This document shows positions 10,604-60,194 of a stretch of 64,000 bases of DNA, one piece after another. Within the stretch, counting starts at the first letter, position 1. Every line of letters begins with the position of its first letter. The DNA is taken from IMG/VR virus record IMGVR_UViG_3300008107_000253, positions 7,024 to 71,023 of that record; one strand, 5' to 3'. The notes below the pieces were generated by a model. It worked only from the letters and a program-made list of their open reading frames with translations. It searched no databases and had not been told where the DNA came from. The DNA comes from a virus. Both the position numbers and the translations under genes were made by a program.

Positions 10604-10606
10604 AGA

Positions 10607-16129: not shown

Positions 16130-16583
16130 AATAGAGTGGTGAAGTTGTTAGTGTATTAATATAATTTGGCATGCTCACAGAATCAATGTATTTTCCTCGA
16201 TACCTCCAGAATAATTTATCTCCCTTGGCATGTATCTTTTCAACAATGCGTGTTTTGAGAATATCTGAATCTCTGTTACTTGGTCTCCAATCATTTAAAA
16301 GATGCTCTGGGTATTCATCTAACTTAAATTCTTTATCTGTTACTTTAAATTTTCGATTAATAATTTCGTTTTTAATTTCATTATGTCTTTTATGAAGGTA
16401 AAGAATTTTGTCAGTCCAAAAAAGAATATGACCTTTATTCAAAGTCATAGCAGGAGGTATTTTAGCCTTCATCTGAAAATTATATTTTCTCAGCATTCCA
16501 TCAACAATTAATAGCTCTGACTGTTCTGCTATTAAATGTTGATCGCATAAAATTTCAGGATTAATTCCTGCATTACATCTCAT
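16122..16583 (-). CDS. denV: Pyrimidine-dimer DNA glycosylase / endonuclease V-like
   Basis: LCDQHLIAEQSEL and IP...TLNKGHILFWTDKILYLHKRH align with T4 DenV LADQHLMAEYREL / [20 protein letters not shown]. Confidence 0.8.
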   Translation of the reverse strand: MRCNAGINPEILCDQHLIAEQSELLIVDGMLRKYNFQMKAKIPPAMTLNKGHILFWTDKILYLHKRHNEIKNEIINRKFKVTDKEFKLDEYPEHLLNDWRPSNRDSDILKTRIVEKIHAKGDKLFWRYRGKYIDSVSMPNYINTLTTSPLYYV

Positions 16584-17200
16584 GGTACAAAATAAAGTGG
16601 CTTGGTGTTGTATTTATGTGCTGATATTAATTCATGACCGACAACTTCAAATACTGTATGTTCTGCAATACTTGTTTTACATGAATCAGTTTCTACAGAA
16701 GAAAAATCACCCGACCATCTATCAATAAATAAAGTATTTGCTGATCTGGTAATGTATAACTTTTTTGTAGTCATATTATACATCCAACATGACCATGTAC
16801 CTTGTAATTTTTCAAAAAATGAAAAATCTGAATATGCATATAATAAAAAAGGAATTATACTACTGTCAATTGCATAATCAGCAATGCTCAAATTATGTTC
16901 TTTTAGTAAAGCTTTATGATTTGTCAAAATGCCATTATGAGCAACTAACCAATTCCTAAATGAAAATGGATGGCATGTGTCTGGTGTAAATTCAAGACCA
17001 GCACCAGTAGGTGCTCTTAAATGACCAAGATATACATCCGCATCGGTATTGATTTTAGCTTTTACATCTTCAGATTTGTATATTGTTGCTTTATTATCAC
17101 TAAGAAATAATCCACCAAAGCATTTCACTCCACGAACAGAATTCGCATCATATAACTCATTGAATCTTTCTAACTTACTTGATTTGAAAATACCACACAT
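16580..17200 (-). CDS. Class II (Ntn) glutamine amidotransferase
   Basis: N-terminal nucleophile MCGIF; GHLRAPT, HPF, VAHNGILTN, DSS. Confidence 0.85.
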   Translation of the reverse strand: MCGIFKSSKLERFNELYDANSVRGVKCFGGLFLSDNKATIYKSEDVKAKINTDADVYLGHLRAPTGAGLEFTPDTCHPFSFRNWLVAHNGILTNHKALLKEHNLSIADYAIDSSIIPFLLYAYSDFSFFEKLQGTWSCWMYNMTTKKLYITRSANTLFIDRWSGDFSSVETDSCKTSIAEHTVFEVVGHELISAHKYNTKPLYFVP

Positions 17201-17202
17201 AC

Positions 17203-17877
17203 TTAACTATACTTTGTTAAAAACAAATTTTCACTATTTTTCCACACTTTATCACTCGTAGAATTTAGACCTCCTGATTGATGAGTAACATGCAATGGAA
17301 TTGTTGACATTTTCAATCCTGCTTTGTTTGCTTGTATGCAGAAGTCAATATCATAATGGTGGAAATGAAATTGAGGATCGAATAGCACTCCCTTATCGAT
17401 AATTGCGTTTTTATTCAGTGCTAAAAACAGACCATCCATCACTACACATCTTTTTGGTGATAATCCAAAATTAGTAGCAAATGAATGATTGTCTGGTGTA
17501 AAATGATTTACAAACCCACACCAATTTTCTTTTGGCGACATCAAATGCCATAATGCTGGTGATTTAATTTGCATTGCACTTGCACCTGCCAATCCAAGTA
17601 TTTCAAATTCACGGAATCCTTGTTCTAATTTTTCCAGCCAAAATAAGTCTTCGACAATGACGTCATCATGGACACAAACCACGTAGTCTTGCTCGCAGTG
17701 TAAAATTGCATGATTATAAACATCAGGCAATCCAATTTTATTATTATACGCAATATATGCTTGATCGCTGACTTTTGCTTTTCTGAGAAATTTAGCAAGG
17801 TGTGAATCTTTCCAAAATTCATCATGTGATTTTTGGGTAGCAGATGCAAAGTAAATATCTGTAATTTTTATACTCAT
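17203..17877 (-). CDS. GT-A fold glycosyltransferase (GT2-like)
   Basis: YVVCVHDDV DxD-like motif; GLAG; MDGLFLA; FHFHHYDIDFC. Confidence 0.8.
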   Translation of the reverse strand: MSIKITDIYFASATQKSHDEFWKDSHLAKFLRKAKVSDQAYIAYNNKIGLPDVYNHAILHCEQDYVVCVHDDVIVEDLFWLEKLEQGFREFEILGLAGASAMQIKSPALWHLMSPKENWCGFVNHFTPDNHSFATNFGLSPKRCVVMDGLFLALNKNAIIDKGVLFDPQFHFHHYDIDFCIQANKAGLKMSTIPLHVTHQSGGLNSTSDKVWKNSENLFLTKYS

Positions 17878-18614
17878 AGGATTCCGTATTTCTTATAATC
17901 AATGGAAATTGCATATTCCATGGGATCTTTCATTTTAGCATTAATGAACCCCTGTAATCTATTAGCACACGCCACACATTCACCACATGAAATTGTTTTG
18001 ATTCCAGGCACATCGATTGGGTTATAACAAGTCCATGTTAATTCAAACGGCACATTTAATTCAGCGCCTCTATGAATAATTTCTTCTTTATTCATGGTCA
18101 TTAGAGGTGCTTTAATTTCGATTGCATTCTTTCTATTAAGACAAATGACCTTATTAATTGACTCAAGAAACTCTGCAGAAGCATCCCAATATCCGGATAG
18201 AGTGTCTGCTTGTTGTGCTCCATAATATACTTCATTTGATTCGGTGCTTTCAGCAAAACCAACTGCAGTGCTCAACATAATCATATTGCGATTGGGTACA
18301 TAACTTAGAGGCTGAGGATCACCAAGAACGTCTCTCGCTTTTGGTATTTCATATTCTCCATTCAAGAGTGCCGATTTTTGAAGATAATCAAAAACATGCT
18401 TTAGTGAAATCGAATGTAAAACGACTTTGTTTTGAATTTTTGAGGTCAAATTATCGATCACATTCTCTGCTGCCTTACATTCAATTGAATGCCTTTGTCC
18501 ATAGAAGAAATTAAGACAATATAAAATTTCCCCCTCTTTTAATTGTGATGCTACCTCATAAAGCAAGACGGTTGAATCTAACCCTCCGCTAAATATAATT
18601 ACCTTGTTAGTCAT
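17874..18614 (-). CDS. queC: 7-cyano-7-deazaguanine synthase
   Basis: SGGLDST, YGQRH, YVPNRN, YWDA, APLMTMNKEEI, TWTCY...CGECVAC zinc site; probable ATG at 18614. Confidence 0.93.
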   Translation of the reverse strand: MTNKVIIFSGGLDSTVLLYEVASQLKEGEILYCLNFFYGQRHSIECKAAENVIDNLTSKIQNKVVLHSISLKHVFDYLQKSALLNGEYEIPKARDVLGDPQPLSYVPNRNMIMLSTAVGFAESTESNEVYYGAQQADTLSGYWDASAEFLESINKVICLNRKNAIEIKAPLMTMNKEEIIHRGAELNVPFELTWTCYNPIDVPGIKTISCGECVACANRLQGFINAKMKDPMEYAISIDYKKYGIL

Positions 18615-18620
18615 AAATAA

Positions 18621-18649
18621 AATATAATACACTGAAATCAACAATTCAA
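18621..18649 (-). promoter_or_regulatory. sigma70-like promoter TTGAAT-N17-TATATT for the queC cluster
   Basis: 17-nt spacer; -10 ends 6 nt before the queC ATG. Confidence 0.5.
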
Positions 18650-18668
18650 GTGATAAATAAATATAGTT

Positions 18669-19487
18669 ATGTCCAAGCTTAAACAAATTTTCCTATCTAC
18701 TCTTCGAGAGGCTGACGAAGAAAAAACATATGATCCTACTGCAGATGAAGTGCCTCTACGCAGCAGGCTTGAGAATGATGACATTGAACCAGATGCTCTT
18801 GATGTAGAACCAGGCCCTCCGAATACAGGATATAAAGCTGAAGTCGAGGCTGCTAAAAAATGGATTACTGAAATTGAAAGATTCGTTGAATATTTAAATG
18901 ACATTGACCAAGGATCAATCAACCGCCAAATTAACGTGCTCGACAGAGACAATAGTGTCTTTAAAGGCATTGCTTCACGTATTTCGGATAAGATTGCACG
19001 TGTATCATCTGACCTCGCTGAATTAAAAGAAATTATGGCTGGATTTGTTATCGCATCTGATCGCAAAGCTAAAAACATTCGCCTTTCAGATTCATTAAGT
19101 GTTGCTGATGTTGTAGTCGAAACGTTGTCGAGAATCGGCTTTGAAACAACATATTCAAGCCCAAAATTATGTCGTATGGTACTTGAGACCACAGAAGGCG
19201 AACTTAAAGCTGAAGTTCATGAAGACGGTACTGTAAACGGCGAAAGCATTGATGCTTATTTAGATCGCCTTGCATCTGAATATGATATCAATGCAATTAT
19301 CGAAGATGATGTTCTTCATGAAGAAATTGTGATGGATGAAAAAATCCTCAAACAAATCAAAGAAATTGATGATAAACTAGCGGTGCAGTGGAATCAAGAT
19401 TTGTATGCAAAGCGCAAAGCTCTCCAGTCAAAAATGGAAACAAATTATATTGATGTCGCGAAAAGCTTAATTGGCGAAAAAGATTAA
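18669..19487 (+). CDS. Hypothetical acidic protein, probably virion-associated
   Basis: 272-aa ORF; ATAAATA box upstream; N-terminal LKQIFLSTLRE. Confidence 0.6.
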   Translation: MSKLKQIFLSTLREADEEKTYDPTADEVPLRSRLENDDIEPDALDVEPGPPNTGYKAEVEAAKKWITEIERFVEYLNDIDQGSINRQINVLDRDNSVFKGIASRISDKIARVSSDLAELKEIMAGFVIASDRKAKNIRLSDSLSVADVVVETLSRIGFETTYSSPKLCRMVLETTEGELKAEVHEDGTVNGESIDAYLDRLASEYDINAIIEDDVLHEEIVMDEKILKQIKEIDDKLAVQWNQDLYAKRKALQSKMETNYIDVAKSLIGEKD

Positions 19488-40585: not shown

Positions 40586-41351
40586 TACTTTTATCACGGG
40601 TAATAAATTTAAATCTCTATGCGATGATTATGTTGACATAGACAAACATTATATTGATATTTCAAAAAAACCAAAAACAATATTTGTAAAGACCGACTAT
40701 ATTCCTGCATTTTACAAAAAAATAATGCCACTAATAGATTATAATTTTAGCTTAGTTACACATAATTCCGATCTACATATCAACGAAAGATATTCGGTAA
40801 TATATGAGGATAAACGAATAATTAATTGGTACGCTATGAATTGCGAAATAATTCATCCAAAGCTTAAACCAATACCAATAGGAATTGCAAATGAAATATG
40901 GGAACACGGAAATGTCGATATTTTAAATGAAATCATAGAAAAAGAAATATCACATGACAATCTTTGCTATAGCAATTTTGATATATCTACTAACCCAAAC
41001 AAACGCAAACATGTATACGACATCATACAAAGTAAATCATTTATTGATTGTGAAACAAAAAAATTACCCTTCAAAGAATATTTGACAAAATTAAAAAGCT
41101 ATAAGTATGTAATATCACCACCGGGTAATGGAGTAGATTGTCATCGAATATGGGAATCAATTTACCTTGGTGTTATACCTATCGTAGAAAACCACGCCGC
41201 ATTGAGAGAATTTAAAGATTTGCCTATATTGTTTGTCGATTCGTTTTCGGATATAAATGAACAAATGTTGAATCATCTATATTTAAAAATCAAATATAGA
41301 GACAAACACAAAGTAAATATGTTAAGTGATTATAACAAAAACTTACTATAA
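40578..41351 (+). CDS. Exostosin/GT47-like glycosyltransferase
   Basis: THNSD...PIPIGIAN...YVISPPGNGVDCHRIWESIYLGVIPIV. Confidence 0.7.
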   Translation: MNNTFITGNKFKSLCDDYVDIDKHYIDISKKPKTIFVKTDYIPAFYKKIMPLIDYNFSLVTHNSDLHINERYSVIYEDKRIINWYAMNCEIIHPKLKPIPIGIANEIWEHGNVDILNEIIEKEISHDNLCYSNFDISTNPNKRKHVYDIIQSKSFIDCETKKLPFKEYLTKLKSYKYVISPPGNGVDCHRIWESIYLGVIPIVENHAALREFKDLPILFVDSFSDINEQMLNHLYLKIKYRDKHKVNMLSDYNKNLL

Positions 41352-41460
41352 TGCGCAACATTTTTTTACCACAATATAGGATAAGATTGTTTGCATGTCG
41401 AGGAATTAACTCACTTCTCACTAGCTACTAAATCTTTTGGTTGCATAAAAAAAATACCTA

Positions 41461-41468
41461 GATAAATA
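41461..41468 (+). promoter_or_regulatory. Late-like promoter GATAAATA
   Basis: 6 nt before the ATG at 41475. Confidence 0.5.
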
Positions 41469-41474
41469 TAAGGC

Positions 41475-42068
41475 ATGATACCACATTTGATTAACGAAAC
41501 ACTAAATGGAACTGGTGATTCTTCACAGCACACAATGGCACTTTTCGGCTTAGCACTGACTTTAAAAGCAAAAAATATTTTAGAATTAGGAGTTAGAGCA
41601 GGGCTTACTACATTGCCTTTATTACACTCAACATTATACACAGGAGGACACCTGACAAGTATTGATATCGAAGAAAATGCAGCAATAAGACAACTGCATA
41701 ATAATAACTCAAGTAATTGGGATTATATTATTTCAGAAGCACAACACTATTTAAAAAATTTACCACAAGATAAAATTTTTGATTTAGTTTTAATTGATGA
41801 TTGGCATGATGGTGATCATCTTTTTGAAGAAATAAAATTAATCGAGCCCCATATTACACCATCGTCATTAATTTTAATACATGATTGTATGTGTTATAAT
41901 ACACAGCCATCATATCATGTATACCTTGATAAAGAAGGTGAATTTGCAAATGGAGGTCCTTATGGTGCCGTGCAAAGATTGGATCGTGAAATATGGGAAT
42001 ATTCTACAATTCCTGTTAATAATGGCATGACAATTTTAAGAAAGCTTGACAAAACTTTAATTTTTTAA
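41475..42068 (+). CDS. Class I SAM-dependent methyltransferase (Methyltransf_24-like)
   Basis: ILELGVRAG, SIDI, DLVLIDDWH, LIHD. Confidence 0.85.
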   Translation: MIPHLINETLNGTGDSSQHTMALFGLALTLKAKNILELGVRAGLTTLPLLHSTLYTGGHLTSIDIEENAAIRQLHNNNSSNWDYIISEAQHYLKNLPQDKIFDLVLIDDWHDGDHLFEEIKLIEPHITPSSLILIHDCMCYNTQPSYHVYLDKEGEFANGGPYGAVQRLDREIWEYSTIPVNNGMTILRKLDKTLIF

Positions 42069-42107
42069 TTTATAAAATAAATTAAAAAATGCATAAAATT
42101 ATTTCCG

Positions 42108-42671
42108 ATGGATCATTATTATTATAATATAGGCGAAGATTGGTTCACATACCCGAACATATACGCAATGGCTGTCAATGGCGCACATGCTAATGCTAAA
42201 TTTGTTGAAGTAGGATCTTGGAAGGGACGCAGTTCATGTTTTATGGCTGTTGAAATTTTAAATTCTGGTAAAAATATAGAATTTTATTGTGTCGATACTT
42301 GGAAAGGTAGTGAAGAACACCAAGAAATGGATATAATTCATAGTGACAATTTATATCAAGAGTTTATTAAAAACATTAAACCAGTATCTAATATCATTAA
42401 GCCAATTAGAATGGATTCTTTGGATGCAAGTAAAACATTTGAAGATGAAACACTCGATTTTGTTTTCATAGATGCCGCTCATGACTATGAATCTGTCAAA
42501 AAGGATATTATTCACTGGTATCCAAAGGTCAAGAAAAATGGAATTTTAGCTGGGCATGATTATGCACCATCATGGGGAGTCAAACGAGCAGTTGACGAAT
42601 GGGCTGCTGAAAATAATATTGACATTGTAGTAGATCATGGCAGTATATGTTGGCTTTGCAAAAAGAAATAA
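42108..42671 (+). CDS. Class I SAM-dependent methyltransferase (Methyltransf_24-like)
   Basis: VEVGSWKGRS, VDTW, DFVFIDAAHDY, GILAGHDY. Confidence 0.88.
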   Translation: MDHYYYNIGEDWFTYPNIYAMAVNGAHANAKFVEVGSWKGRSSCFMAVEILNSGKNIEFYCVDTWKGSEEHQEMDIIHSDNLYQEFIKNIKPVSNIIKPIRMDSLDASKTFEDETLDFVFIDAAHDYESVKKDIIHWYPKVKKNGILAGHDYAPSWGVKRAVDEWAAENNIDIVVDHGSICWLCKKK

Positions 42672-44536: not shown

Positions 44537-45787
44537 ATGTCAATCCATAATCCATATACACAAGGAACTGTAATTGGTAAGCCAGTATTTGGCAATTATA
44601 ACCCAGAATTTTTTCAACGAAGAGTTAACGCACAATTCGAGCAACTAAGAAAGAATGCACCACCAGTACAATCGGCAGACACCCCTGGTGCTGGACTAAA
44701 GAGAGCCTTACATTTTTATGCTGATTATGGTGGGTGTGGGTTGTGGCGTATGACATGGCCAGAATTACTTCTTAATGGATATGGAAAAGCCGTAGTCAAT
44801 AGTTTGACTCAAATGGTTTCTGATCCTAATTTTTATCAGCCAATTAATGCAATTAAATTACAAAGACAAGCAACACCAGATCAGTATGAATTTGTGAAAT
44901 TCCTTAAGAGCCTGCAAGGCGAGTTTGGATTTAAACTTATCTATGAGGTTGATGATGTTGTATTTGGTGAAGATATTCCTCTATACAATACTAGTCGTGT
45001 GGCATTTACAGATCCAGTAATTAATGAAACGATCAAAAAGATTATTAATCTGTGTGACGAAATGTGCGTAGTATCTCCATACATGAGAGATTACTACAAG
45101 CGTAAAACAGGTAAACAAGAAATTAATGTCATTCCAAATTATGCACCAAAATTCTGGCTGCATGATTTTTACAATCCAATCAAGATTGACAAAAATTATG
45201 TTAAAAATAAGAAGAAACCTGTGATTGGTTATATGGGATCTGGTACGCACTTTGACCCATCAAATGCAGCGAATCAACAAGATGACTTTGCTCATGTTAT
45301 CGATGCAGTTATTCGCACACGTAATAAATTTCAATGGGTCTTCTTAGGCGGGATTCCAATGAAACTTTTGCCCTATGTGCACCGCAAAGAAATTATTCAT
45401 GTGCCATGGGTGAACATTTATGAAATGCCGCGTGTATTTGCTTCGCTAAATGTCAATGCTGTTGTAGCACCAATCGCACGCAATGAATTCAATCGTGCAA
45501 AATCGGACATTAAAATGCTCGAAGCTGGTGCATTGGGCATTCCAGGCGTCTTCCAGAATCTTGAACCATATCAAGCCGCACCTTATAAATTCGATACAGG
45601 AGATGAGATGATCGCACAGCTTGATCGACTTCTCAAAGATCGCAATGAGTATCTCAAACAATCAGAGAAGGCTCGTAAGATGGCGGAAAAGAGATGGCTA
45701 GACGATCATCTTGATGAGCATTACGAAATGCTCTTTAAAATGCCAAACGAAAAACGTGATTCTCTCTCCGCCAATGGTTATAATTAA
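44537..45787 (+). CDS. GT-B fold glycosyltransferase (GT4-like)
   Basis: GCGLWRMTWP, LQR, YEVDD, IPNY, IGYMGSGTH, API...FNRAKSDIKMLE. Confidence 0.8.
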   Translation: MSIHNPYTQGTVIGKPVFGNYNPEFFQRRVNAQFEQLRKNAPPVQSADTPGAGLKRALHFYADYGGCGLWRMTWPELLLNGYGKAVVNSLTQMVSDPNFYQPINAIKLQRQATPDQYEFVKFLKSLQGEFGFKLIYEVDDVVFGEDIPLYNTSRVAFTDPVINETIKKIINLCDEMCVVSPYMRDYYKRKTGKQEINVIPNYAPKFWLHDFYNPIKIDKNYVKNKKKPVIGYMGSGTHFDPSNAANQQDDFAHVIDAVIRTRNKFQWVFLGGIPMKLLPYVHRKEIIHVPWVNIYEMPRVFASLNVNAVVAPIARNEFNRAKSDIKMLEAGALGIPGVFQNLEPYQAAPYKFDTGDEMIAQLDRLLKDRNEYLKQSEKARKMAEKRWLDDHLDEHYEMLFKMPNEKRDSLSANGYN

Positions 45788-45789
45788 CC

Positions 45790-48369
45790 ATGTGGAGAAA
45801 TGTCTATTACGATAATAGCCGAAAGAAATTATTTTTGTGGAGTTGGGATAAGCAAGGCAAGCGCCGAATGTATGACTTTGCCTTTGAACCATTTCTCTAT
45901 GTAGAAACCACTGATGCAAAAAATGCAGATGGCAAGAGCTTGTTTGATACCAATTTGAAGAAGCTTACTTTCGCGAGTGAAAGCGCTCGTAATGCATATA
46001 TTAAGCAATCAAATATCCGTAGGCTATTTTACAACCTAAAACCAGAACAACAATTTCTTTTAGATCTTTATAGAGACAAGGACTTTGATTGGTCTGAATT
46101 GCCATTTAAGGTTTTTTATGCTGACATTGAGGTGTATTCTCCTTATGAATTTCCAGAGGCAGATGAAGCAAAACACCCAATCAATGTTGTCACTATTTAT
46201 GATAGCATTGCACAGACATATCATGTATGGGGATTGAATGATTATGATAAGAGCAAGTTGAATGAAGTTCTACAAAAACAGAACATATCACCACTCGACA
46301 TATCAAAAATCAAATACACACATTGCCGTTCGGAAACAGAATTGCTTCAGAAGTTTTTAGACTTCTGGACAAATGATTATCCTGATCTAGTGACAGGATG
46401 GAATATTGAAGGATTTGATATTCCATATCTCATTAACCGAATTTCATATATACTCAGTGAAGCCGATGCAAGATCACTCTCACCAGTCAATAAGCTCTAT
46501 GTAAGAGAGGGAATTGCTACAAAATTCGGTCGAGAAATTAACAAATGGTATATTCGAGGGCTTACTTGCCTTGATTATATGGATTTGTATAAGACATTCA
46601 GCAGAGGTGAGCAAGATTCTTATTCATTAAATAACATCGCAGCGGTCGAGCTTGATATTACAAAACTTTCACACAATGCAAGTGACCTTGCGTCTTTGAG
46701 TGAAAGTGATTGGAATATGTTTGTCAATTACAACATTCATGACGTAAACCTCGTTCGTCTGCTCGATGAAAAGTTGAATTATGTGAACATTGCTCGCTTC
46801 TTGGCTTATAAAGGATTTACAAAAATTGAAGATTCTTTAGGCAAGATCATGATTGTAACAGGCGCAATGTGTAAGGAAGCAAATCGGCTTGGTAAAATTA
46901 TTCCAACATTCGCACCTTCAAATTCACAAGAGGATTATGTTGGTGGTTATGTTAGAGAACCACAAAGAGGATTGCATGAAGCTGTAGTGTCATTTGATGC
47001 TAATTCACTATATCCTAATACAATCATTACACTTAATTTGTCACCAGAAACAAAAATTGGCAAGATCATTTACAAGGACGATGATGAATGCAGAGTCAAA
47101 TTTATAAATGGTAAAATACAATCAATGAGCCATGAAAAGTTGCACGAATTGTGCTCAAAAAACAATTTAGCATTATCAATGGCTGGTGTCTTATATAGAC
47201 AAGATGTAAAGGGCATTTGCCCGTCATTTATCGATTCCTTATATCAAGAGCGTGTTGTTATTCAAAATCAAATTGAACAGCTAGAATCACAGAATTTGAA
47301 GGAGAACAAGGCGAAAATTAAGCATCTTGACCAGATGCAATATACGATCAAAATCTTTTTGAATTCGGCATATGGTACTTATGCTAACAAGTATAGTCCT
47401 TTTTATGACATTGATATGGCGGCGAGTATTACAGAGACAGGACAGGCTGTAATCAAGCAAGCAGCTGGAGTTGTAAATCAATACTTTATACAAGAACACA
47501 ATCTCCCTGATAAAGATTATATCATTTATGGAGATACGGATTCGATTTATCTTACCATGAAGTCTTATCTTGCAATCAAGCAAGTTACTGTATTGCATGA
47601 TAATGGAAATGTAACAGAAGAATTTGTTAAAGAAACAGACACTCTGCAGTCATATATCAATGACAAGATCAATAATTGGGCTCGCAATGTTTTACATTCA
47701 ACAGATCCAAGATACTTCTTTAAGAGAGAATCAATTTGTGATGCTGGTCTCTTCTTGGAAAAGAAACGATATATTCTTAGTGTCCGATATGACGGAAAAA
47801 GACACAAACACAAATTTAAGTATGTCGGGGTTGAAGTACAGCGAAGCACGTATTCCGCAGCAATCAAAACCATGATGAAAGACATTATCATGGAAGTGTT
47901 TCGCACCAAAGACAGGCTTAAATCAGATGCCAAATATCGTGAATGTTACGAGAGGTTTAAGGAATTGCCTATTGATGAGATTGCTTTCAGATCTTCAATT
48001 AAAGACTACGAAAAATATGCAAGCCAATCGGATGGATTCAAAATAGCTTTGCATACACCTATTCATGTCAAGTCGGCAATTTATTATAATACATTGCTTG
48101 AAACATTAAAATTGAAAGCAAAATATCAAGCAATTGTTTCCGGCACCAAAATCAAATACATCTATACAGGACAAAACAAATACGGCATCAAGTGCATAGG
48201 CTTTAATGATACGATTCCAGAAGAATTTGATATTAAAGTTGATGTAGAAAAAATGTTTGAATCATTAGTTGCACCGTGCATTGAAAGAGTGTATAATTCA
48301 TTGGGGTGGCAACTGCCTGACATGAGAAGACAATACCAATGTGATTTCTTAGAACTTTTCGGATTATGA
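45790..48369 (+). CDS. Family B DNA polymerase (T4 gp43-like)
   Basis: Exonuclease DIE, GWNIEGFD, YNIHDV; polymerase DANSLYP, KIFLNSAYG, YGDTDS, KKRY; no intein evident. Confidence 0.97.
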   Translation: MWRNVYYDNSRKKLFLWSWDKQGKRRMYDFAFEPFLYVETTDAKNADGKSLFDTNLKKLTFASESARNAYIKQSNIRRLFYNLKPEQQFLLDLYRDKDFDWSELPFKVFYADIEVYSPYEFPEADEAKHPINVVTIYDSIAQTYHVWGLNDYDKSKLNEVLQKQNISPLDISKIKYTHCRSETELLQKFLDFWTNDYPDLVTGWNIEGFDIPYLINRISYILSEADARSLSPVNKLYVREGIATKFGREINKWYIRGLTCLDYMDLYKTFSRGEQDSYSLNNIAAVELDITKLSHNASDLASLSESDWNMFVNYNIHDVNLVRLLDEKLNYVNIARFLAYKGFTKIEDSLGKIMIVTGAMCKEANRLGKIIPTFAPSNSQEDYVGGYVREPQRGLHEAVVSFDANSLYPNTIITLNLSPETKIGKIIYKDDDECRVKFINGKIQSMSHEKLHELCSKNNLALSMAGVLYRQDVKGICPSFIDSLYQERVVIQNQIEQLESQNLKENKAKIKHLDQMQYTIKIFLNSAYGTYANKYSPFYDIDMAASITETGQAVIKQAAGVVNQYFIQEHNLPDKDYIIYGDTDSIYLTMKSYLAIKQVTVLHDNGNVTEEFVKETDTLQSYINDKINNWARNVLHSTDPRYFFKRESICDAGLFLEKKRYILSVRYDGKRHKHKFKYVGVEVQRSTYSAAIKTMMKDIIMEVFRTKDRLKSDAKYRECYERFKELPIDEIAFRSSIKDYEKYASQSDGFKIALHTPIHVKSAIYYNTLLETLKLKAKYQAIVSGTKIKYIYTGQNKYGIKCIGFNDTIPEEFDIKVDVEKMFESLVAPCIERVYNSLGWQLPDMRRQYQCDFLELFGL

Positions 48370-49169
48370 ATAAAACATACATTACACACGAAGCACCTAT
48401 ATCTATTTTAGATACAGTAGGTTCAATTACTGACTACGACTATTGTTTGGTTCATCTTCTAGATGAATCAGAAAAGTATCGTGATTATTTTTTCAGGCAG
48501 AAAAAAGCAGGACGAAGAATCATTCTTGACAATAGTATATTCGAACTTGGCACTGCATTTGATCATGCCAAATATGAGCAATGGATCGTCAAGCTAGAAC
48601 CATTTATTTACATTATGCCTGATGTGCTTGGTGATTTGGATGCTACTGTTGAAAATGCAAATGTATGGAGTAAAAAGAAATTTAATAGCAGACCGATGGC
48701 AGTAGTGCAGGGTCAAAGCATGGATGAGCTTACTACATGTTATACAAAGTTCATTCATCTCGGTATCAATACAATTGCGATTGGATTTAATCATGACTTC
48801 TTTGTTCGTGATGAATCAACAAGGGACTGGGATCAAGCGAACGGCAGAATAAAATTCGTTCAACATTTGCTGAATAAATTTTATTGGAATGGAGGCGCAT
48901 TCATCAATGATGGCGAAGGATTTTATCACCATTTGCTGGGTTGCTCTTTGCCGGTGGAATTCTGTCATTCAATTTATCAATCGGTTCACATTAATAGCAT
49001 CGACACTTCAAGCCCAGTATTGCACGGACTTCTTGGTGTTGATTATGAGCCACTAGGCATCTTAACAAAGAAGAAAATTAAAATGAATGATCTTATACAT
49101 GCAAATGTTACATCAGAACAATTGCAAAAAATCATTGCAAACATTCACACCTTCAGCGATATTATTTGA
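48366..49169 (+). CDS. TGT/DpdA-fold guanine transglycosylase-like protein
   Basis: Ordered TGT-like motifs LDNS (cf. DSGG), MPDV, AVVQG (cf. GIVQG), IAIG (cf. YAIGG), HLLG (cf. YLMG), SIDTSSP (cf. FDCVxP); lacks the C-terminal Zn cluster. Confidence 0.7.
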   Translation: MNKTYITHEAPISILDTVGSITDYDYCLVHLLDESEKYRDYFFRQKKAGRRIILDNSIFELGTAFDHAKYEQWIVKLEPFIYIMPDVLGDLDATVENANVWSKKKFNSRPMAVVQGQSMDELTTCYTKFIHLGINTIAIGFNHDFFVRDESTRDWDQANGRIKFVQHLLNKFYWNGGAFINDGEGFYHHLLGCSLPVEFCHSIYQSVHINSIDTSSPVLHGLLGVDYEPLGILTKKKIKMNDLIHANVTSEQLQKIIANIHTFSDII

Positions 49170-49170
49170 T

Positions 49171-49716
49171 ATGAAAATCTGTATTAGCGGGCCTCAATGT
49201 TCAGGTAAAAGCACACTCATGAAAGCGTTGGGTAATATTGAAATGTTTGAAGATTATCATTTCATTGATGAACCAGTACGCAAGCTTGTTGCTGAAAAAG
49301 GAATTAAGATTAATAAAATTGCAGACTATGAAAGTCAAATGATGATTCTCGAAGAACACCATCGAAACACGTATCGGCATTATTCTTTAATCACAGATCG
49401 TGGGGCATTAGATGCTTTTACGTATGCTACTTGGTCGTATCTCAAGGGCGATTATTCCTATAAGGAATGGACTGATTTTTCAGACATCTTCCAAAAAACA
49501 ATGAGAAGATATGATCGAATTTTTATTATGCCTCCGCTTGAAATGAAAAATGATGGATTCCGTTCTTTAGATGTCAATTGGCAAAATGAAATTGCTAATC
49601 TGATGGAAGATATTGCAAATGAATGGTGTGCCGTTAATAATTGGATTGTGCCGGTACATAATGTACCCACCGGCAATACAAATGATTATGTGAAATTTAT
49701 TCTTAGCCTCGTATGA
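49171..49716 (+). CDS. P-loop nucleotide kinase-like protein (AAA_28/NadR-type)
   Basis: ISGPQCSGKSTL; ITDRGALD; DGFR; ATG at 49171. Confidence 0.8.
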   Translation: MKICISGPQCSGKSTLMKALGNIEMFEDYHFIDEPVRKLVAEKGIKINKIADYESQMMILEEHHRNTYRHYSLITDRGALDAFTYATWSYLKGDYSYKEWTDFSDIFQKTMRRYDRIFIMPPLEMKNDGFRSLDVNWQNEIANLMEDIANEWCAVNNWIVPVHNVPTGNTNDYVKFILSLV

Positions 49717-50192
49717 CTAAATTATACCTATCTTGGGACACCGTAACAGAAGCTTCAGAACAGCTTGCACATAATCTATATGATCAATTTCCAGGTGAAT
49801 CAAAAAATGATATTGTTGTGTTTGCGCCTTATTATGGTGGCTGGCCTGTAGCATCGATGATCATTAATCAATTGCGCTCATTGTTTAATGATGAACATTA
49901 CAAGCCTGCCATTTTATCAGAAACAGATATGACAATGCATCTTTTGGTTCCGTTCTTGAAATCGAAGCATCTTGTCATTATTGATGATGTGCTTGATACT
50001 GGTCGCGTGATTAACAATATTATTTGGAGAATTGTATCGGAATGTCGTGCATTTATGACACAAGAAGAAATTCTGCAAAGGATTCATATTTGTACTGTCG
50101 GTAAGAAAAGAAATTGTGAATGGAAATGCAATCACTTTTATGTTCATGAATGGGATCCAAATAAATGGATTTGTTATCCATGGGAAACATAA
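49713..50192 (+). CDS. Purine phosphoribosyltransferase (Gpt/XGPRT-like)
   Basis: LSWD, PRPP-binding VIIDDVLDTG, C-terminal WICYPWE. Confidence 0.8.
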   Translation: MTKLYLSWDTVTEASEQLAHNLYDQFPGESKNDIVVFAPYYGGWPVASMIINQLRSLFNDEHYKPAILSETDMTMHLLVPFLKSKHLVIIDDVLDTGRVINNIIWRIVSECRAFMTQEEILQRIHICTVGKKRNCEWKCNHFYVHEWDPNKWICYPWET

Positions 50193-50200
50193 GTTAGAAT

Positions 50201-50668
50201 ATGGCTAATTTTTTGCAATTTATTAACATCATCGAAGAAGAGATGAAATTAAGAGAATCGAGAACAAACAAATTTAATATCAAATGGCAGATCGTAAGAA
50301 CAGATGCTCGTGATATTAAAGACCCATCTAAAAAACTATCGTTTGTTTTGAATTTTCTTAAAAACAATCCTTCTAAACAAAATTATGACCGCGTTGCTAA
50401 TTGGGTTAAAATGACAGGTGTTTCATACAAAGGAGAAGATCGTGAAAAATATGAAAAAGCACATGAAACCCTTAAAGCCAGCCAAGATGATTATAAAGAA
50501 GGAGATGAAGAGAACGATCTAAGCAAAGCAAGTACATCAGAAATAGAGAAAGTATACAAAGATCTTAGTAAGCGCAAGTACGGATTTCAATATAAATCAG
50601 TACCAAAAGATCATATTGCATTCATGAATGAATTAGAAAATGAACTAAAGAAAAGAAAAAATGCATAA
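50201..50668 (+). CDS. Hypothetical protein (possible internal head protein)
   Basis: MANFLQFINIIEEE N-terminus. Confidence 0.55.
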   Translation: MANFLQFINIIEEEMKLRESRTNKFNIKWQIVRTDARDIKDPSKKLSFVLNFLKNNPSKQNYDRVANWVKMTGVSYKGEDREKYEKAHETLKASQDDYKEGDEENDLSKASTSEIEKVYKDLSKRKYGFQYKSVPKDHIAFMNELENELKKRKNA

Positions 50669-51182
50669 TGAAAAATTAGAAACAATTGTTAATAAATGGA
50701 ATAGAATACTTCGTCATAAAAGAAACGAAAAATCACTATTCGATGATGATTATAAACAAAATGTAAAAATTTCCACAGGCAAAAATTCAAACAATCAACC
50801 AATTTATAAAGGAAAATCTTTTAATAGATTTACTTTGCTATTAAAAGATTTTGATTTTGATTGGCTAGAGAAAAATTTGTCAAAAATCAAAAGTACGATC
50901 AATGCAAAAATTACAGCATCAATAATTAATCAATTATTTAATGACTATTCTATATATACCAGCAACGAAATATATGCGAAAGTTGTATTAAAAGAACTTG
51001 CAGAAAAATCAAAAGATAAATTTTTAGATTCAAATTCACTGATGCAAACTTTTCAAAAATATAACATCAAATTGGATATTTACATAGCAGAAATTGGCAT
51101 TATAAAATATATCAACAATGCTTGTGGTAATCCTTATAGTTTGATGATTAATATGGGATTAAAAATACAACCTCCACGTTAA
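50661..51182 (+). CDS. Hypothetical protein
   Basis: 173-aa, very AT-rich ORF. Confidence 0.5.
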   Translation: MHNEKLETIVNKWNRILRHKRNEKSLFDDDYKQNVKISTGKNSNNQPIYKGKSFNRFTLLLKDFDFDWLEKNLSKIKSTINAKITASIINQLFNDYSIYTSNEIYAKVVLKELAEKSKDKFLDSNSLMQTFQKYNIKLDIYIAEIGIIKYINNACGNPYSLMINMGLKIQPPR

Positions 51183-51184
51183 TT

Positions 51185-51902
51185 TCAATAATTTAATTCA
51201 TTCCAACCATCAATTGAATACATATCACCAAACCACATGTGTCTATATTTGCCGTAATATATATTAGAATAAAAAGACAACCACCCGATCACCGCAGAAA
51301 AAGAACCATGTGATAGTATGACATTTTTACAAGTACTACCAAATTGCATAGTATCAACCTCTGTTCTATTAAAATATTCAATATTATAATTATCACTTAA
51401 TTTTTTTACTATTTCATGATTAAAATCATCACTAGCTAAAAAAATCTTATCATATTGAAGATTGTTAATTGCCCTGCTGTAATAGTCATATCCTAAATTC
51501 CACTGCGCAGTATCAGTCAAACGAAGATGCAGAAAAATATCATGATTATTGTCATATCTTTCATTAAATGGATTTTTACCAATAATACTATTTTTTCATT
51601 TCAGTGTGAAGCCAATTATGAATCATTTTAGAAATATCTTTTGTTTGAAAATAATGAACATTGGCGTTTATATTACACTCAATTTGAGGACCATTTAAAA
51701 TATCAAAATAATTATCATCCGTCAATTCAATGCTACAATTAAAATCATTTTCTCCTGAAAATAATTCAATACCTAAAGATTGGATTAAATCATGACTCGA
51801 ATAGCGAACAGCCAAATTATTCTTTTTAGCAATAAAATGTAATGCAATATTTCTTATAATTTGATTACCGAGTCGCCCATGATAAATATTAGTTTCAGTC
51901 AT
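51185..51902 (-). pseudogene. GT11 (alpha-1,2-fucosyltransferase-like) gene frameshifted at an A6 run
   Basis: GRLGNQ...YFQ in the upstream ORF; HLRLTD, YY, FLASD, SHGSFS in the downstream frame; removing one base at 51591-51596 joins them. Confidence 0.75.
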
Positions 51903-51923
51903 AAAAAAAATATTTATTTGTAG

Positions 51924-51952
51924 TTGATAACAAAGCACACCACATTTAAAAT
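51924..51952 (+). promoter_or_regulatory. sigma70-like promoter TTGATA-N17-TAAAAT
   Basis: Canonical spacing upstream of the ORF at 51969. Confidence 0.55.
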
Positions 51953-51968
51953 ATAATATCATTAACCT

Positions 51969-52352
51969 ATGAGTACAGAAACAAACCTTAATGTCTTCGT
52001 CAAAGAAAATCTGATCGCATTTATCGATCCTGCAGGCCGAACTGGTTTCGGCGAGCGTATTCCAACGCTAGATACTGATAGCACGATTGCAATCAAGAAT
52101 CCAGTCGTCGTCCATGTTATTCCACAAGGACCTAACATGGCACTACAGCTGTTGCCTGCCTTCTTCAAGGAATTCAGTGCTTCACAAGAAGAGCCAATCG
52201 TTTTCGATTATCCGAGAGGAGCGATTGCTATTACAAACAACGCGACATTTGACTTCAAGCTTTATGCGCAATATGAAAGCATGTTTGCACCTCCTCCACT
52301 AGTGCAGCCGGTTTTTTCAGATCCAAAAGTTGTCAAGCTGTTTGACGAATAA
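51969..52352 (+). CDS. Hypothetical protein (monocistronic)
   Basis: 127 aa with its own promoter and terminator. Confidence 0.7.
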   Translation: MSTETNLNVFVKENLIAFIDPAGRTGFGERIPTLDTDSTIAIKNPVVVHVIPQGPNMALQLLPAFFKEFSASQEEPIVFDYPRGAIAITNNATFDFKLYAQYESMFAPPPLVQPVFSDPKVVKLFDE

Positions 52353-56836: not shown

Positions 56837-57445
56837 ATGACAAAACAAACTTACAATCGAGAAGAAGCCGAAAAGGCTTATGGAGGATTTCTCAAAGCTC
56901 TTGGCTTTAATTGGCGAGACAATCCACACATGAAAGATACACCGAAGCGTGTAACCAAAGCATGGATTGAGGATCTTGCAAAAGGATGTTTTGAAGACAC
57001 GCCAAAAATTACTTCATTTGAAAATGATGGCAGTTATGATGGTATTGTATGTCAAACAAATATTCCTGTCGTGTCGATGTGTGCTCATCACAATTTGCCA
57101 TTCTTTGGATATTGTCATGTTGCATATATTCCGGAGAAAGACGGCAGGGTGGTAGGGCTTTCAAAGCTTAATCGTGTAGTTGATCATTTCAGCAGAAGAC
57201 CACAAGTGCAAGAGACATTGACAATGGAAATACACAACTTTATTAATAATCTTTGCGAGCATAACAAAGGTGTATCAGTTCTAGTTGAAGCAAATCACAC
57301 ATGTTGTTCTCTTCGCGGTATTAAGCAAAATTCAACCATGAGAACTGCAAAGATGTCGGGTGCATTTATTGATCCACAAAACAACAGCCGCAATGAATTT
57401 TACAAATTTGTAGAGTTTGCACAGTCAAGCCGTAGTTTAGTTTAA
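56837..57445 (+). CDS. folE: GTP cyclohydrolase I
   Basis: DTPKRV, SMCAHHNLPFFG, VGLSKLNR, RRPQVQE, HTCCSLRG. Confidence 0.95.
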   Translation: MTKQTYNREEAEKAYGGFLKALGFNWRDNPHMKDTPKRVTKAWIEDLAKGCFEDTPKITSFENDGSYDGIVCQTNIPVVSMCAHHNLPFFGYCHVAYIPEKDGRVVGLSKLNRVVDHFSRRPQVQETLTMEIHNFINNLCEHNKGVSVLVEANHTCCSLRGIKQNSTMRTAKMSGAFIDPQNNSRNEFYKFVEFAQSSRSLV

Positions 57446-57446
57446 T

Positions 57447-58010
57447 ATGCAAGAAGTATCTCGAGACGAAGCAATTGCAATGGCGAGAGTGGCTGCTTTT
57501 ATGTCAAACCAACTTAATGGCATTGATAGTGCAGTTATTAATTCAAATAAAAATATTGTAGGCAACACGGGAGAAATATCAGTGGATAAGATATTGTCTG
57601 GTATTAAAATTGCAACACCACACCCACCACCAGGTCCTGTTATTGATGGTCTTGATGGAGAAAAGGTTGTTTTGCATGAAGTGCAAGGAGAAGTTGTAGA
57701 TGCTCCTGTTCAAATTGACAATCCATTTGCAAAAGCATCATCACAAAACAAACCAATGGAACCACTACAATTGCCAGTAGGCAAATCACCAATCGCAAAC
57801 ATCATGAGAACAACAATGTTAAAGGATCCAGGGCCTTTATCTGTAACTGATCGGACAGTTGAAACCGTATCTGATGTTATGCCCATCAAACAAACATCAA
57901 CAAATGATGAAATACTTAAATTGATCATAGAAAAATTAGTAACAATTGAACTCAAGCTTAACAAATTAATCAAGAAAAAGAAAAATGAAAATAAAAGTCC
58001 TCAAGGATAA
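57447..58010 (+). CDS. Hypothetical protein
   Basis: 187-aa ORF in the replication operon. Confidence 0.6.
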   Translation: MQEVSRDEAIAMARVAAFMSNQLNGIDSAVINSNKNIVGNTGEISVDKILSGIKIATPHPPPGPVIDGLDGEKVVLHEVQGEVVDAPVQIDNPFAKASSQNKPMEPLQLPVGKSPIANIMRTTMLKDPGPLSVTDRTVETVSDVMPIKQTSTNDEILKLIIEKLVTIELKLNKLIKKKKNENKSPQG

Positions 58011-59124: not shown

Positions 59125-59484
59125 ATGAAGAAAAAATCCAAACCATCAGATTACGATTTGCATAAATCACTCAATGATCTTTCATCGCAATTACAAAAAG
59201 AAGGGTTTGGATTGTCTCCCGAGGAGCTGCAAGAATTAAAAAATGCAGCTGCTCGGGAGTTTAGCTCCCATAAAAGCTTTAAAGAATTAAAAGACAACAG
59301 TCAAAAAATCGTTAATTATTTGGCTGAATATTTTGATACCTTTATTTTGCTTGGATACGATTCTAAAGGAGAAAGAATTCAATTGCAATTTTGTGATAAT
59401 GCATTGAAAGAAGACGCATTAATGAAATTTTTAGAACAAGTATTTATCAAATATCACAGACAAAGAAACGAATCAGACACATGA
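59125..59484 (+). CDS. Hypothetical protein
   Basis: 119-aa ORF; AATAAATA 5 nt upstream. Confidence 0.6.
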   Translation: MKKKSKPSDYDLHKSLNDLSSQLQKEGFGLSPEELQELKNAAAREFSSHKSFKELKDNSQKIVNYLAEYFDTFILLGYDSKGERIQLQFCDNALKEDALMKFLEQVFIKYHRQRNESDT

Positions 59485-60194
59485 GAATAGCAGTAACCGG
59501 AACCCAATGTATAGGCAAAACGACATTCATTAATGATTTTTTAATGAGATGGCCGATGTATAAAAGACCCGAAAAGACATATCGTGATTTAATTTCGGAG
59601 AAAAATATCCAACTCAATCAAGGCGGTACTAAAGAAAGCCAAGAAATAATTCTCGATGCACTTTGCGAACAAGCGGAAGAAAATAAAGATGCAAAGCATT
59701 GTATTCATGATCGGTGTGTAATCGATAATCTTGCATATACCTGTTGGCTTGCGGCCAAGAAAAAAGGTGGGGTTACTGATTCCGATGTCACTGCAGCTAT
59801 TCTTCAAGCACGAATGGCTCTCAAGTATTATGATGTTATTTTCTTTTTGCCTGTTTCGACAACATCACCAATTGCAATTGAAGCAAAGGAAAATAGAGAC
59901 ATTGATCTAGACTATCGGAATGAAATTGATCATTTCTTAAAAGCATTCAATGTTGATTATATTCAAAAGAAAGGCAAAATTTTTCCAACAGAAGATTGCC
60001 CTGCCGTCATTGAAGTTTTTGGTGATCGATCAGAAAGACTTCATTTAGTGTCGCTATATGTCAATGAACAAGGCAATGCATATGATGAAAAAGAAGGCTC
60101 ATTAATTTCTTTTGATGGATTTACAGATGAAGAAGAAATGTCTGAATTAGAAAAGAACGAAATTTTGCGCCGTTTGACAGGTCCTAATTCATAA
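59481..60194 (+). CDS. P-loop nucleotide kinase-like protein (AAA_28-type)
   Basis: VTGTQCIGKTT; IHDRCVID; YDVIFF. Confidence 0.8.
   Translation: MRIAVTGTQCIGKTTFINDFLMRWPMYKRPEKTYRDLISEKNIQLNQGGTKESQEIILDALCEQAEENKDAKHCIHDRCVIDNLAYTCWLAAKKKGGVTDSDVTAAILQARMALKYYDVIFFLPVSTTSPIAIEAKENRDIDLDYRNEIDHFLKAFNVDYIQKKGKIFPTEDCPAVIEVFGDRSERLHLVSLYVNEQGNAYDEKEGSLISFDGFTDEEEMSELEKNEILRRLTGPNS

Follow-up and report, generated by a model that had tools for sequence, protein, structure and literature searches.

A DpdA3 gene coupled to a family-B DNA polymerase in a T4-like phage, and possible routes of 7-deazaguanine into its DNA

Phages that replace every guanine of their DNA with a 7-deazaguanine resist many restriction enzymes, and the route by which they reach 100% replacement is unproven. 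DpdA3, the transglycosylase subfamily of such phages, was defined by Hutinet, Cui and colleagues in phages of the immuto and CP220 type, and the main text of their paper reports both the replacement of 100% of G in DpdA3 phages and the presence of the 7-amido-7-deazaguanine (ADG) nucleoside in the cytoplasm of CP220-infected cells (PMC10516641). According to the same text, no activity of DpdA3 alone was seen in E. coli, and none is shown there in vitro (PMC10516641). Here we describe a stretch of 64,000 nucleotides of viral DNA (the window; positions 7,024 to 71,023 of IMG/VR virus record IMGVR_UViG_3300008107_000253) in which the genes of a family-B DNA polymerase (PolB), a DpdA3 protein, a P-loop kinase and a Gpt-type phosphoribosyltransferase (PRTase) follow one another. 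Its predicted proteins mark this block as the core of a DpdA3-type system, through which a T4-like phage would replace G with a 7-deazaguanine. The system is of a known type, here in a compact, polymerase-coupled form lacking QueF and DpdN, and the kinase proves to be a regular partner of DpdA3.

Two further systems bear on the comparison. In the bacterial DpdA/DpdB system of Salmonella Montevideo, DpdA (structure 7ui4) inserts preQ0 into DNA only together with DpdB and ATP, as stated in the passages on these proteins in PMC10164549, and less than 0.1% of G is modified (PMC10516641). The dDG system of Cellulophaga phage phiST, which contains the founding DpdA3 member CGPG_00065, includes MazG and DpdL and lacks QueC, as given in the main text of PMC10516641. 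That text likewise reports the modification of CP220 and immuto, whereas the phage of the window is known from its genes alone.

The polymerase-DpdA3-kinase-phosphoribosyltransferase block

The window is part of a 71-kb viral contig with a completeness estimate of 36% and has a G+C content of about 35%. It encodes T4-type tail sheath and tube, baseplate and large terminase proteins, a gp32-like single-stranded DNA-binding protein, a UvsX-like RecA, a DnaB-like helicase and a late sigma factor. These genes mark its source as a T4-like myovirus of about 200 kb. The window is syntenic with a complete relative (G001; 195,888 bp, 100% complete, with direct terminal repeats), and most proteins of the two are 50-93% identical, with 79% identity between the polymerases. 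The block comprises four genes:

45790..48369, plus strand: PolB, family-B DNA polymerase, 859 amino acids (Pfam DNA_pol_B 1.3e-33; exonuclease domain 2e-20; phrog_262 3.8e-192)
48366..49169, plus strand: TGT-fold transglycosylase of the DpdA3 subfamily, 267 amino acids (tblastn, family profile, AlphaFold2 model and Foldseek)
49171..49716, plus strand: P-loop small-molecule kinase of the AAA_28 / NadR-ribosylnicotinamide kinase (RNK) / deoxynucleoside kinase (dNK) / thymidylate kinase (TMPK) clade, 181 amino acids (Pfam AAA_28, profile against PDB, Foldseek)
49713..50192, plus strand: divergent Gpt-type (xanthine-guanine/purine) PRTase, 159 amino acids (Pfam Pribosyltran, similarity to 1vdm)

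These genes are one translationally coupled block. The TGA stop of PolB overlaps the ATG of DpdA3 as ATGA at 48366, an overlap already recorded in the initial annotation of this DNA; a single nucleotide separates the DpdA3 stop from the kinase ATG at 49171; and the kinase stop overlaps the PRTase ATG at 49713, again as ATGA. While the program-listed open reading frame (ORF) of the kinase begins at 49087, 43 aligned relatives, all starting just before the P-loop, place its real start at 49171. No terminator-like site was found on the plus strand between 42000 and 52375. The placing of a kinase with a DR motif and a Gpt-like PRTase directly after the 267-residue ORF, also made in the initial annotation, held up, with AAA_28 and Pribosyltran both matching above their cut-offs. 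The block offers a compact four-gene test set free of extra tailoring enzymes.

The DpdA3 assignment began from motifs of TGT type without a zinc cluster, and this description is correct: LDNS, PDV, VVQG, IAIG, HLLG and IDTSSP all occur, in that order, in the 267-residue translation, and the 54 residues C-terminal to IDTSSP contain no cysteine. In a tblastn search of 50,697 phage records, 19 records matched the ORF (14 from Campylobacter, 4 from Flavobacterium and 1 from Weizmannia phages), including the "DNA guanine transglycosylase" of Flavobacterium phage immuto_2-6A (39.2% identity, 5e-45) and gp056 of Campylobacter phage CP220 (36% identity, 1e-41). A family profile built from 48 homologues matches the phiST protein CGPG_00065 (1.2e-17), gave no match in phages 9g and Dp-1, and describes a large family, with 980 of 1254 candidate proteins matching at E<=1e-3. 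Residues D55, D86, G116, H189-L-L-G192, D213, S215 and P217 are invariant across the 48 homologues. An AlphaFold2 model of the protein (pLDDT 92.8, pTM 0.90) was matched by Foldseek to TGT, ArcTGT, eukaryotic TGT or DpdA 7ui4 in every match listed, with a probability of 1.00 and E values from 2.5e-8 to about 2e-6. The motifs are real rather than chance resemblances, because they are invariant in the 48 homologues, because 980 proteins match the profile, and because the model is a TGT-type barrel. The earlier suggestion of a TGT/DpdA fold thus survives both a profile and a structure search, with the predicted catalytic aspartates invariant.

The only PDB sequence matched by the DpdA3 profile is bacterial DpdA 7ui4 (E 0.33), over the region HLLG...SID, where HMMER aligns D213 with the SID nucleophile motif. 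In bacterial DpdA this region holds the nucleophile Asp256, and D55, which is followed four residues on by F59 as Asp95 is by Phe99, and D86 appear, by the order of the motifs, to correspond to its Asp95 and Asp130 (residues as described in the passages on the active site in PMC10164549). Judged by sequence and model, the ORF is a member of the DpdA3 subfamily with a minimal TGT-type (beta/alpha)8 barrel, in which the three active-site aspartates (acid/base, base recognition and nucleophile) are predicted to be kept. It shares with bacterial DpdA the barrel (Foldseek probability 1.00, root-mean-square deviation 4.8 over 257 columns), these aspartates and the aligned HLLG...ID motif. It differs, however, in being about 140 residues shorter, in lacking the large 128-residue insertion Ins8 as well as the zinc subdomain of TGT, in the marginal sequence similarity just noted, and in belonging to a system with no counterpart of the ParB-like partner DpdB. 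A Pfam scan of the ORF returned no family at E<=0.1, TGT (PF01702) included, and curated DpdA models matched marginally (PADLOC DpdA E 0.0067; NCBIfam DpdA E 0.059, 12.2 bits against a cut-off of 200); by these models the protein classes as a relative, not a member, of the Pfam TGT and NCBIfam DpdA families.

Gene order was compared across 83 loci, consisting of the best 80 viral loci by the DpdA3 profile, immuto, CP220 and the window itself; 549 of the 591 candidate stretches in viral contigs were relatives, from which the best 80 were drawn. Near DpdA3, these loci carry the kinase (66 loci, downstream of DpdA3), FolE (53), QueC (47), a class-II glutamine amidotransferase (GATase; 23) and PolB (15). 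Most are of the immuto type, with DpdA3, the DpdN formyltransferase, the kinase and QueF. PolB lies directly upstream of DpdA3 in 13 of the 83 loci, all from one T4-like clade that includes the window and has the order SbcC-like gene, glycosyltransferase, PolB, DpdA3, the first two being seen where the upstream sequence suffices. After DpdA3, the clade cousins continue with DpdN, kinase and QueF, whereas in the window and two close relatives kinase and PRTase come next. The view that the four genes are one functional unit therefore stands in part: the junctions are coupled and the DpdA3-kinase pair is widely kept, but the full order polymerase-DpdA3-kinase-PRTase is found in only 3 of 83 loci, namely the window and these two relatives.

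With CP220 and immuto the window shares the transglycosylase subfamily (36-39% identity), the adjoining kinase family, and FolE and QueC-type genes; it further resembles CP220 in belonging to a T4-like myovirus with two kinase paralogues and immuto in having a Gpt-type PRTase in the cluster. In this comparison only the window has DpdA3 coupled to a family-B polymerase and followed directly by kinase and PRTase, and it shares with its complete relative the lack of DpdN and QueF, which immuto and most metagenomic relatives have.

The kinase and phosphoribosyltransferase beside DpdA3

The kinase matches Pfam AAA_28 (2.8e-15, 57.4 bits against a cut-off of 27), contains a P-loop and the DR motif, and belongs to a family named "thymidylate kinase" in PHROGs. 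Invariant residues across 43 relatives are G7, G12, K13, R37, N48, Q56, D76-R77, D81, Y85 and the lid residue R131. In PDB, the family profile matches the NadR ribosylnicotinamide kinase 1lw7 (2.6e-7), dNK 8puu, TMPK 2pbr and the deoxyguanosine kinase 2jaq, and the AlphaFold2 model (pLDDT 92.8) has as its top Foldseek matches the deoxyadenosine kinase (dAK) of M. mycoides, NadR, TMPK and deoxycytidine kinase (dCK), with a probability of 1.00. Because the acceptor-site residues are invariant and the nearest folds are those of dAK, dCK, TMPK and NadR-RNK, the protein is predicted to be a small-molecule kinase rather than a bare ATPase. Nucleoside kinases and nucleoside monophosphate kinases are equally close to it by sequence and by fold, so that its acceptor may be either a nucleoside or a monophosphate.

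The kinase is a regular, near-constant partner of DpdA3. Among loci with at least 2.5 kb of sequence downstream of DpdA3, which we call informative, a kinase homologue is found in 60 of 68; in the reverse direction, all 68 of the informative kinase-seeded viral loci (at least 1.8 kb of upstream sequence) carry DpdA3. The latter come from the best 80 of 296 kinase-profile relatives in viral contigs, and many of these contigs overlap the DpdA3-seeded set. The pairing spans different side-chain chemistries, from immuto (fdPreQ1) and CP220 (dADG) to the QueF-less clade of the window. When applied to isolated phages, the kinase profile detected one copy in immuto and two in CP220, gave no match in 9g, CAjan, Rosebush, Dp-1 and phiST, and in nt-1 matched only a NadR-type nicotinamide mononucleotide adenylyltransferase (NAD salvage) located beside pnuC. 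Because 9g, CAjan, Rosebush, Dp-1 and nt-1 are 7-deazaguanine phages with partial modification (main text of PMC10516641 and further work), the kinase is found specifically with the full-replacement phages immuto and CP220, and not with the partial-modification phages checked.

Phage phiST lacks this kinase family and has a distant DpdA3 near its polymerase region, with a small P-loop kinase-like gene directly beside it. This neighbour, CGPG_00066 (NC_020842, 8385-8861, minus strand), belongs to a different P-loop family (AAA_18, 9.4e-7, 29.8 bits against a cut-off of 29.4), and hhalign aligned it with the kinase profile over the P-loop alone. It is described in the main text of the DpdA3 paper as lacking homologues in other deazaguanine phages (PMC10516641). 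On these sequence comparisons, CGPG_00066 looks like a non-orthologous displacement of the kinase. The words "kinase" and "phosphoribosyl" are absent from that main text; the supplementary tables, which lay outside this check, may list the kinase (PMC10516641).

The window encodes one further member of the kinase family:

59481..60194, plus strand: second kinase-family paralogue, lying in the replication module, 237 amino acids, C-terminal tail acidic (Pfam AAA_28 8.5e-13; kinase hidden Markov model (HMM) 7.5e-27)

The second copy in CP220 (gp006) likewise lies in the replication module, between topoisomerase and dUTPase genes, and both copies are present in the complete relative. The second paralogue may be the general deoxynucleoside monophosphate (dNMP) kinase of the phage and the source of the copy linked to DpdA3. 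A complex prediction for DpdA3 and the kinase scored 0.23 against a mark of 0.32, a value that speaks neither for nor against binding. Scans of viral contigs with the single window sequence of either the kinase or the PRTase returned nothing; the kinase was then found by profile, and the PRTase was profiled within DpdA3 loci only.

The PRTase contains the DDxxDTG phosphoribosyl pyrophosphate (PRPP) loop and matches Pfam Pribosyltran (5e-8, 32.9 bits against a cut-off of 26.3) and, end to end, the NCBIfam xanthine PRTase model PRK09177 (1.9e-4, 21 bits against an equivalog cut-off of 138). A phmmer search of PDB with the protein alone matched the P. horikoshii purine PRTase 1vdm (0.002, residues 1-158 against 1-145), and the family profile matched 1vdm (4.6e-28), Sulfolobus Gpt enzymes and the E. 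coli xanthine-guanine PRTase (XGPRT) 1a95 (5e-13). G42, G43, D91, D95, G97, W152 and W157 are invariant in the family, which has a C-terminal aromatic W..PWE motif, and the window protein shares no more than 12-25% identity with PRTases from other DpdA3 loci. It is classed here as a divergent Gpt-type 6-oxopurine enzyme, having the features that define the Gpt type, with its substrate a matter of prediction. No phage record matched the window PRTase by tblastn at E<=0.01, CP220 not having been searched with the PRTase profile. Among the 83 loci, a window-type PRTase occurs in 5 and a Gpt-type PRTase, by a broader profile, in 24, and it adjoins the kinase only in the window and its two close relatives.

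In hypoxanthine-guanine PRTase and XGPRT, an aspartate of the PRPP loop acts on N7 of the purine, an atom that 7-deazapurines lack. We take D95 of the DDxxD95TG loop to be this residue. Since D95 is kept, guanine recycling fits the PRTase better, and the protein is best read as a guanine recycler that would remove the by-product of base exchange and refill GTP for FolE. The initial annotation had offered two possibilities, of which the synthesis of a deazaguanine nucleotide by PRTase and kinase does not hold as written, the PRTase being dispensable (present in 24 of 83 loci) and retaining the aspartate that presumably acts on N7, while the recycling of displaced guanine agrees better with the conserved loop.

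Exchange on nucleotides or on DNA

The value of the finding lies in a sharper question, namely whether complete 7-deazaguanine replacement takes place before or after replication. We lean slightly, and tentatively, towards the view that at least part of the exchange takes free guanine (deoxy)nucleotides or nucleosides, and not finished DNA, as its substrate; the substrates named below are inferred. According to this proposal, DpdA3 would act on dGMP or a similar small molecule and put the deazaguanine base in place of its guanine, and the adjacent kinase, as a specialised copy of the phage's own dNMP/nucleoside kinase family, would phosphorylate the product of the exchange. Phosphorylation would pull the reversible exchange forward, towards a deoxynucleoside triphosphate (dNTP) for the polymerase encoded upstream, and the Gpt-type PRTase would turn the released guanine into GMP, both removing the by-product and refilling GTP for FolE. 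Handling of free nucleosides or nucleotides is favoured over salvage alone because of the exclusive pairing of the kinase with DpdA3, the small-molecule signature of the kinase, its apparent replacement by another kinase-like gene in phiST, and the nucleoside triphosphate (NTP) hydrolase genes that flank DpdA3 in all three isolates. These hydrolases are MazG-like in phiST and immuto (in the latter a MazG/PRA-PH-type pyrophosphatase two genes upstream of DpdA3), and in CP220 a fusion of an HD domain with an AAA_33 kinase (gp055) directly upstream of DpdA3; beside the DpdA3 of the window there is neither a MazG nor an HD gene. The acidity of the DpdA3 family (median pI 5.35, with 2 of 120 members above pI 7.5) weakly suggests the handling of free nucleotides, overall charge saying little about DNA binding. 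Also in favour are the lack of Ins8 in DpdA3; the complete replacement, the inactivity of DpdA3 alone in E. coli and the cytoplasmic ADG nucleoside reported in PMC10516641; the spread of the pairing over several side-chain chemistries; and the second paralogue in the replication modules of this phage and CP220, where a general dNMP kinase would be expected.

Complete replacement by pre-replicative routes is familiar from the hydroxymethylcytosine of T4, which depends on a dCTPase, dCMP hydroxymethylase and the dNMP kinase gp1, and from the Z-genome phages S-2L and phiVC8, which use MazZ, PurZ and DatZ. The DpdA3 systems resemble these in the clustering of polymerase and nucleotide-type kinase (and of an NTP pyrophosphatase in the isolated DpdA3 phages) with the base-making enzyme, as well as in 100% replacement, but differ in that no dGTP-removing enzyme was found in the lineage of the window. 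In its fullest form, the nucleotide-level proposal would make DpdA3 the first TGT-fold enzyme to act on a free nucleotide or nucleoside, with the kinase feeding a 7-deaza-dGTP analogue to the polymerase, and would mean that CP220, immuto, phiST and the clade of the window are modified pre-replicatively, contrary to the published proposal; this is possible, but we hold it to be somewhat doubtful. If exchange does occur on nucleotides, the TGT superfamily would gain a new reaction type, the post-replicative model would fall in the case of these phages, and an enzymatic route to 7-deaza-dGTP analogues would be at hand.

Several observations weigh against exchange on nucleotides. Any pre-replicative route has to keep dGTP out, and a search for a dGTP-removing enzyme detected MazG neither in the window, nor in the other 7 kb of the contig, nor in the complete relative. 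Pfam scans of the window and the complete relative revealed no HD domain at cut-off, the nearest being a weak HD_4 match in the latter (4.8e-5, below cut-off), and the dUTPase next to QueD in that genome is ordinary-looking. By the completeness estimate, 64% of the genome of the source phage lies outside the contig. No kinase lies within reach of DpdA3 in eight of the 68 informative loci, and in 7 of these 8 a small DUF3310 gene occupies its position. Domain fusions are of little help: the four fused forms among longer DpdA3 relatives comprise three metagenomic DpdA3-QueF proteins (P0121, P0122 and P0124, 531-568 amino acids), which are neutral as to nucleotides or DNA, and P0123 (586 amino acids), in which about 255 N-terminal residues without a Pfam match are joined to DpdA3; fusions with a kinase, nuclease or DNA-binding domain were absent from the longer proteins, those of 469-510 amino acids lying outside the search. 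To our knowledge, every characterised TGT or DpdA enzyme acts on a polynucleotide, and we know of no TGT-fold enzyme that acts on free nucleotides. The authors who defined DpdA3 themselves propose post-replicative insertion in their main text (PMC10516641), and the need of bacterial DpdA for ATP and a DpdB partner, as described in PMC10164549, allows another reading of the P-loop gene. A literature search beyond PMC10516641 found nothing on DpdA3, nor on pre-replicative incorporation of a deazaguanine, or on a corresponding kinase or triphosphate.

The published model, in which DpdA3 is an efficient DNA transglycosylase that acts after replication, can accommodate the block if the PRTase recycles guanine, the kinase serves in salvage (for example GMP to GDP, to replenish the GTP used by FolE) or in dNTP supply, and adjacency to the polymerase reflects the usual clustering of genes. 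It is in line with the polynucleotide substrates of the characterised family members, with the occurrence of the same three aspartates in bacterial DpdA (passages on the active site in PMC10164549), and with the view of the DpdA3 authors (main text of PMC10516641); the lack of a dGTPase in the window, contig and complete relative, the eight loci without kinase and the ordinary purine PRTase features of the PRTase also agree with it. At full replacement, moreover, one GTP would be spent for each G, so that salvage should matter most in precisely these phages. Host Gmk and Gpt could, however, perform such salvage, and salvage leaves unexplained why the kinase is so much more constant than the PRTase (60 of 68 loci compared with 24 of 83) and why it occurs only with DpdA3 (68 of 68). 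The kinase also lies outside the guanylate kinase family, its nearest folds being dNK, TMPK and RNK; DpdA3 has neither the DNA-binding Ins8 found in bacterial DpdA nor the TGT zinc subdomain; and DpdA3 alone was inactive in E. coli according to the main text of PMC10516641. We therefore consider the post-replicative model a serious possibility, though a rather doubtful one. Should exchange not occur on nucleotides, the block would still be a neat illustration of a known system that has a guanine-recycling enzyme as an accessory.

The P-loop protein might instead be an ATP-hydrolysing aid to exchange at the DNA level, a functional analogue of DpdB. The dependence of bacterial DpdA on DpdB and ATP for putting preQ0 into DNA (PMC10164549, in its passages on DpdB) provides the precedent, and a required partner would explain both the failure of DpdA3 alone in E. 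coli (main text of PMC10516641) and the one-to-one pairing of DpdA3 and kinase. Such a role appears improbable for a protein that is a single domain of 180 residues without a DNA-binding part, is unrelated to the ParB-like DpdB, keeps beyond the P-loop the acceptor-site signature of dNK and TMPK (Q56, D76-R77 and lid R131), and has a second paralogue located away from DpdA3, beside a dUTPase gene in CP220. Very improbable is a route in which the PRTase acts first, making a deazaguanine ribonucleotide from free base and PRPP that the kinase and the phage ribonucleotide reductase would convert to a dNTP, with DpdA3 secondary: the translational coupling of PRTase and kinase in the window, the NrdA/NrdB of the complete relative and the recurrence of Gpt-type PRTases in 24 of 83 DpdA3 loci speak for it, but most DpdA3 loci have no PRTase while DpdA3 is the signature gene, D95 as the presumed N7-acting residue is invariant, and the tblastn search of phage records with the window PRTase came back empty at E<=0.01.

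Precursor genes, predicted base and surrounding features

The window contains three genes assigned to the synthesis of the deazaguanine base:

56837..57445, plus strand: FolE, GTP cyclohydrolase I, first step of 7-deazaguanine synthesis, inside the replication module (Pfam GTP_cyclohydroI 2.1e-48; phrog_2197 3e-59; locus-derived HMM 1.2e-72)
17874..18686, minus strand: QueC, 7-cyano-7-deazaguanine synthase family (Pfam QueC 2.4e-55; NCBIfam TIGR00364 1.2e-48, above cut-off)
16580..17200, minus strand: class-II GATase, in an operon with QueC (Pfam GATase_6 1.2e-6; HMM for the GATases located after QueC at 33 DpdA3 loci, 9.5e-19)

The presence of folE and queC, noted at the outset, is thus confirmed. 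The separate QueC and GATase genes are, by their family matches, a split form of the "Gat-QueC" arrangement, and differ in this respect from CP220 and immuto, as does the GT2 glycosyltransferase gene between them. The complete relative encodes FolE, QueD, QueE, QueC, GATase, DpdA3, both kinases and the PRTase, along with NrdA/NrdB, ThyX and a dUTPase next to QueD. Locus-derived HMMs detected no QueD, QueE, QueF, DpdN, MazG, DCD-like or NT5C-like protein in the window or the extra 7.1 kb of the contig, and no QueF, DpdN, MazG, DCD-like or NT5C-like protein in the complete relative, where Pfam PF03819 found no MazG either. Since QueF and DpdN are missing from the complete relative, the pathway would stop at preQ0, with the separate GATase allowing ADG or G+; the base of this phage is accordingly predicted to be preQ0, ADG or G+. 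The ORFs at 57985-58734 and 58757-59116, considered as candidates for QueE and QueD, were rejected, as they matched neither Pfam nor PHROG families nor the locus-derived QueD and QueE HMMs; the former, of 249 amino acids, is sliding-clamp-like by size and position only.

The minus-strand operon at 15539-18686 consists of QueC, the GT2 glycosyltransferase (17203-17877), the GATase, a DenV-like pyrimidine-dimer glycosylase (16122-16583) and a DUF366 protein (15539-16129) that matches PDB 2ddz (7.3e-8), and it is kept in the complete relative at 61-80% identity. It is unusual for a glycosyltransferase gene to separate QueC from its amidotransferase, and this position could point to a further-decorated deazaguanine. 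We know of no function for DUF366, and a literature search found no paper on it.

Upstream of the block, an island at 37375-42671 and 44537-45787 contains no fewer than five glycosyltransferase-like genes, along with two methyltransferases of the Methyltransf_24 family; its target may be a virion glycan, the host surface or DNA. The 416-residue glycosyltransferase directly upstream of PolB is kept in 9 loci of the T4-like clade, and the complete relative additionally encodes, nearby, a GDP-mannose dehydratase, an aminotransferase and a sugar nucleotidyltransferase. The stretch 50661-51962, immediately after the PRTase block, holds a 173-residue ORF and two short minus-strand ORFs, one of them weakly glycosyltransferase-like (phrog_2644, 5e-4), in a region of 27.8% G+C (50001-52000). 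It has no counterpart in the complete relative, where the homologue of ORF o155 directly precedes that of 51969-52352, and looks like an insertion, perhaps with a decayed glycosyltransferase gene.

The polymerase of the complete relative is divided into two ORFs (141 and 785 amino acids) separated by a gap of about 600 bp (115387-115990), and its NrdA large subunit is split and contains an intein-splicing domain (L104, 16874-19078), which suggests mobile insertions in replication genes that are absent from the window polymerase. Finally, a Laminin_G_3 protein and two neighbours at 9929-13104 (minus strand) match parts of a 1373-residue protein and its neighbour at 133793-138561 of the complete relative, which points to a rearranged module, probably for host recognition, between the two phages.

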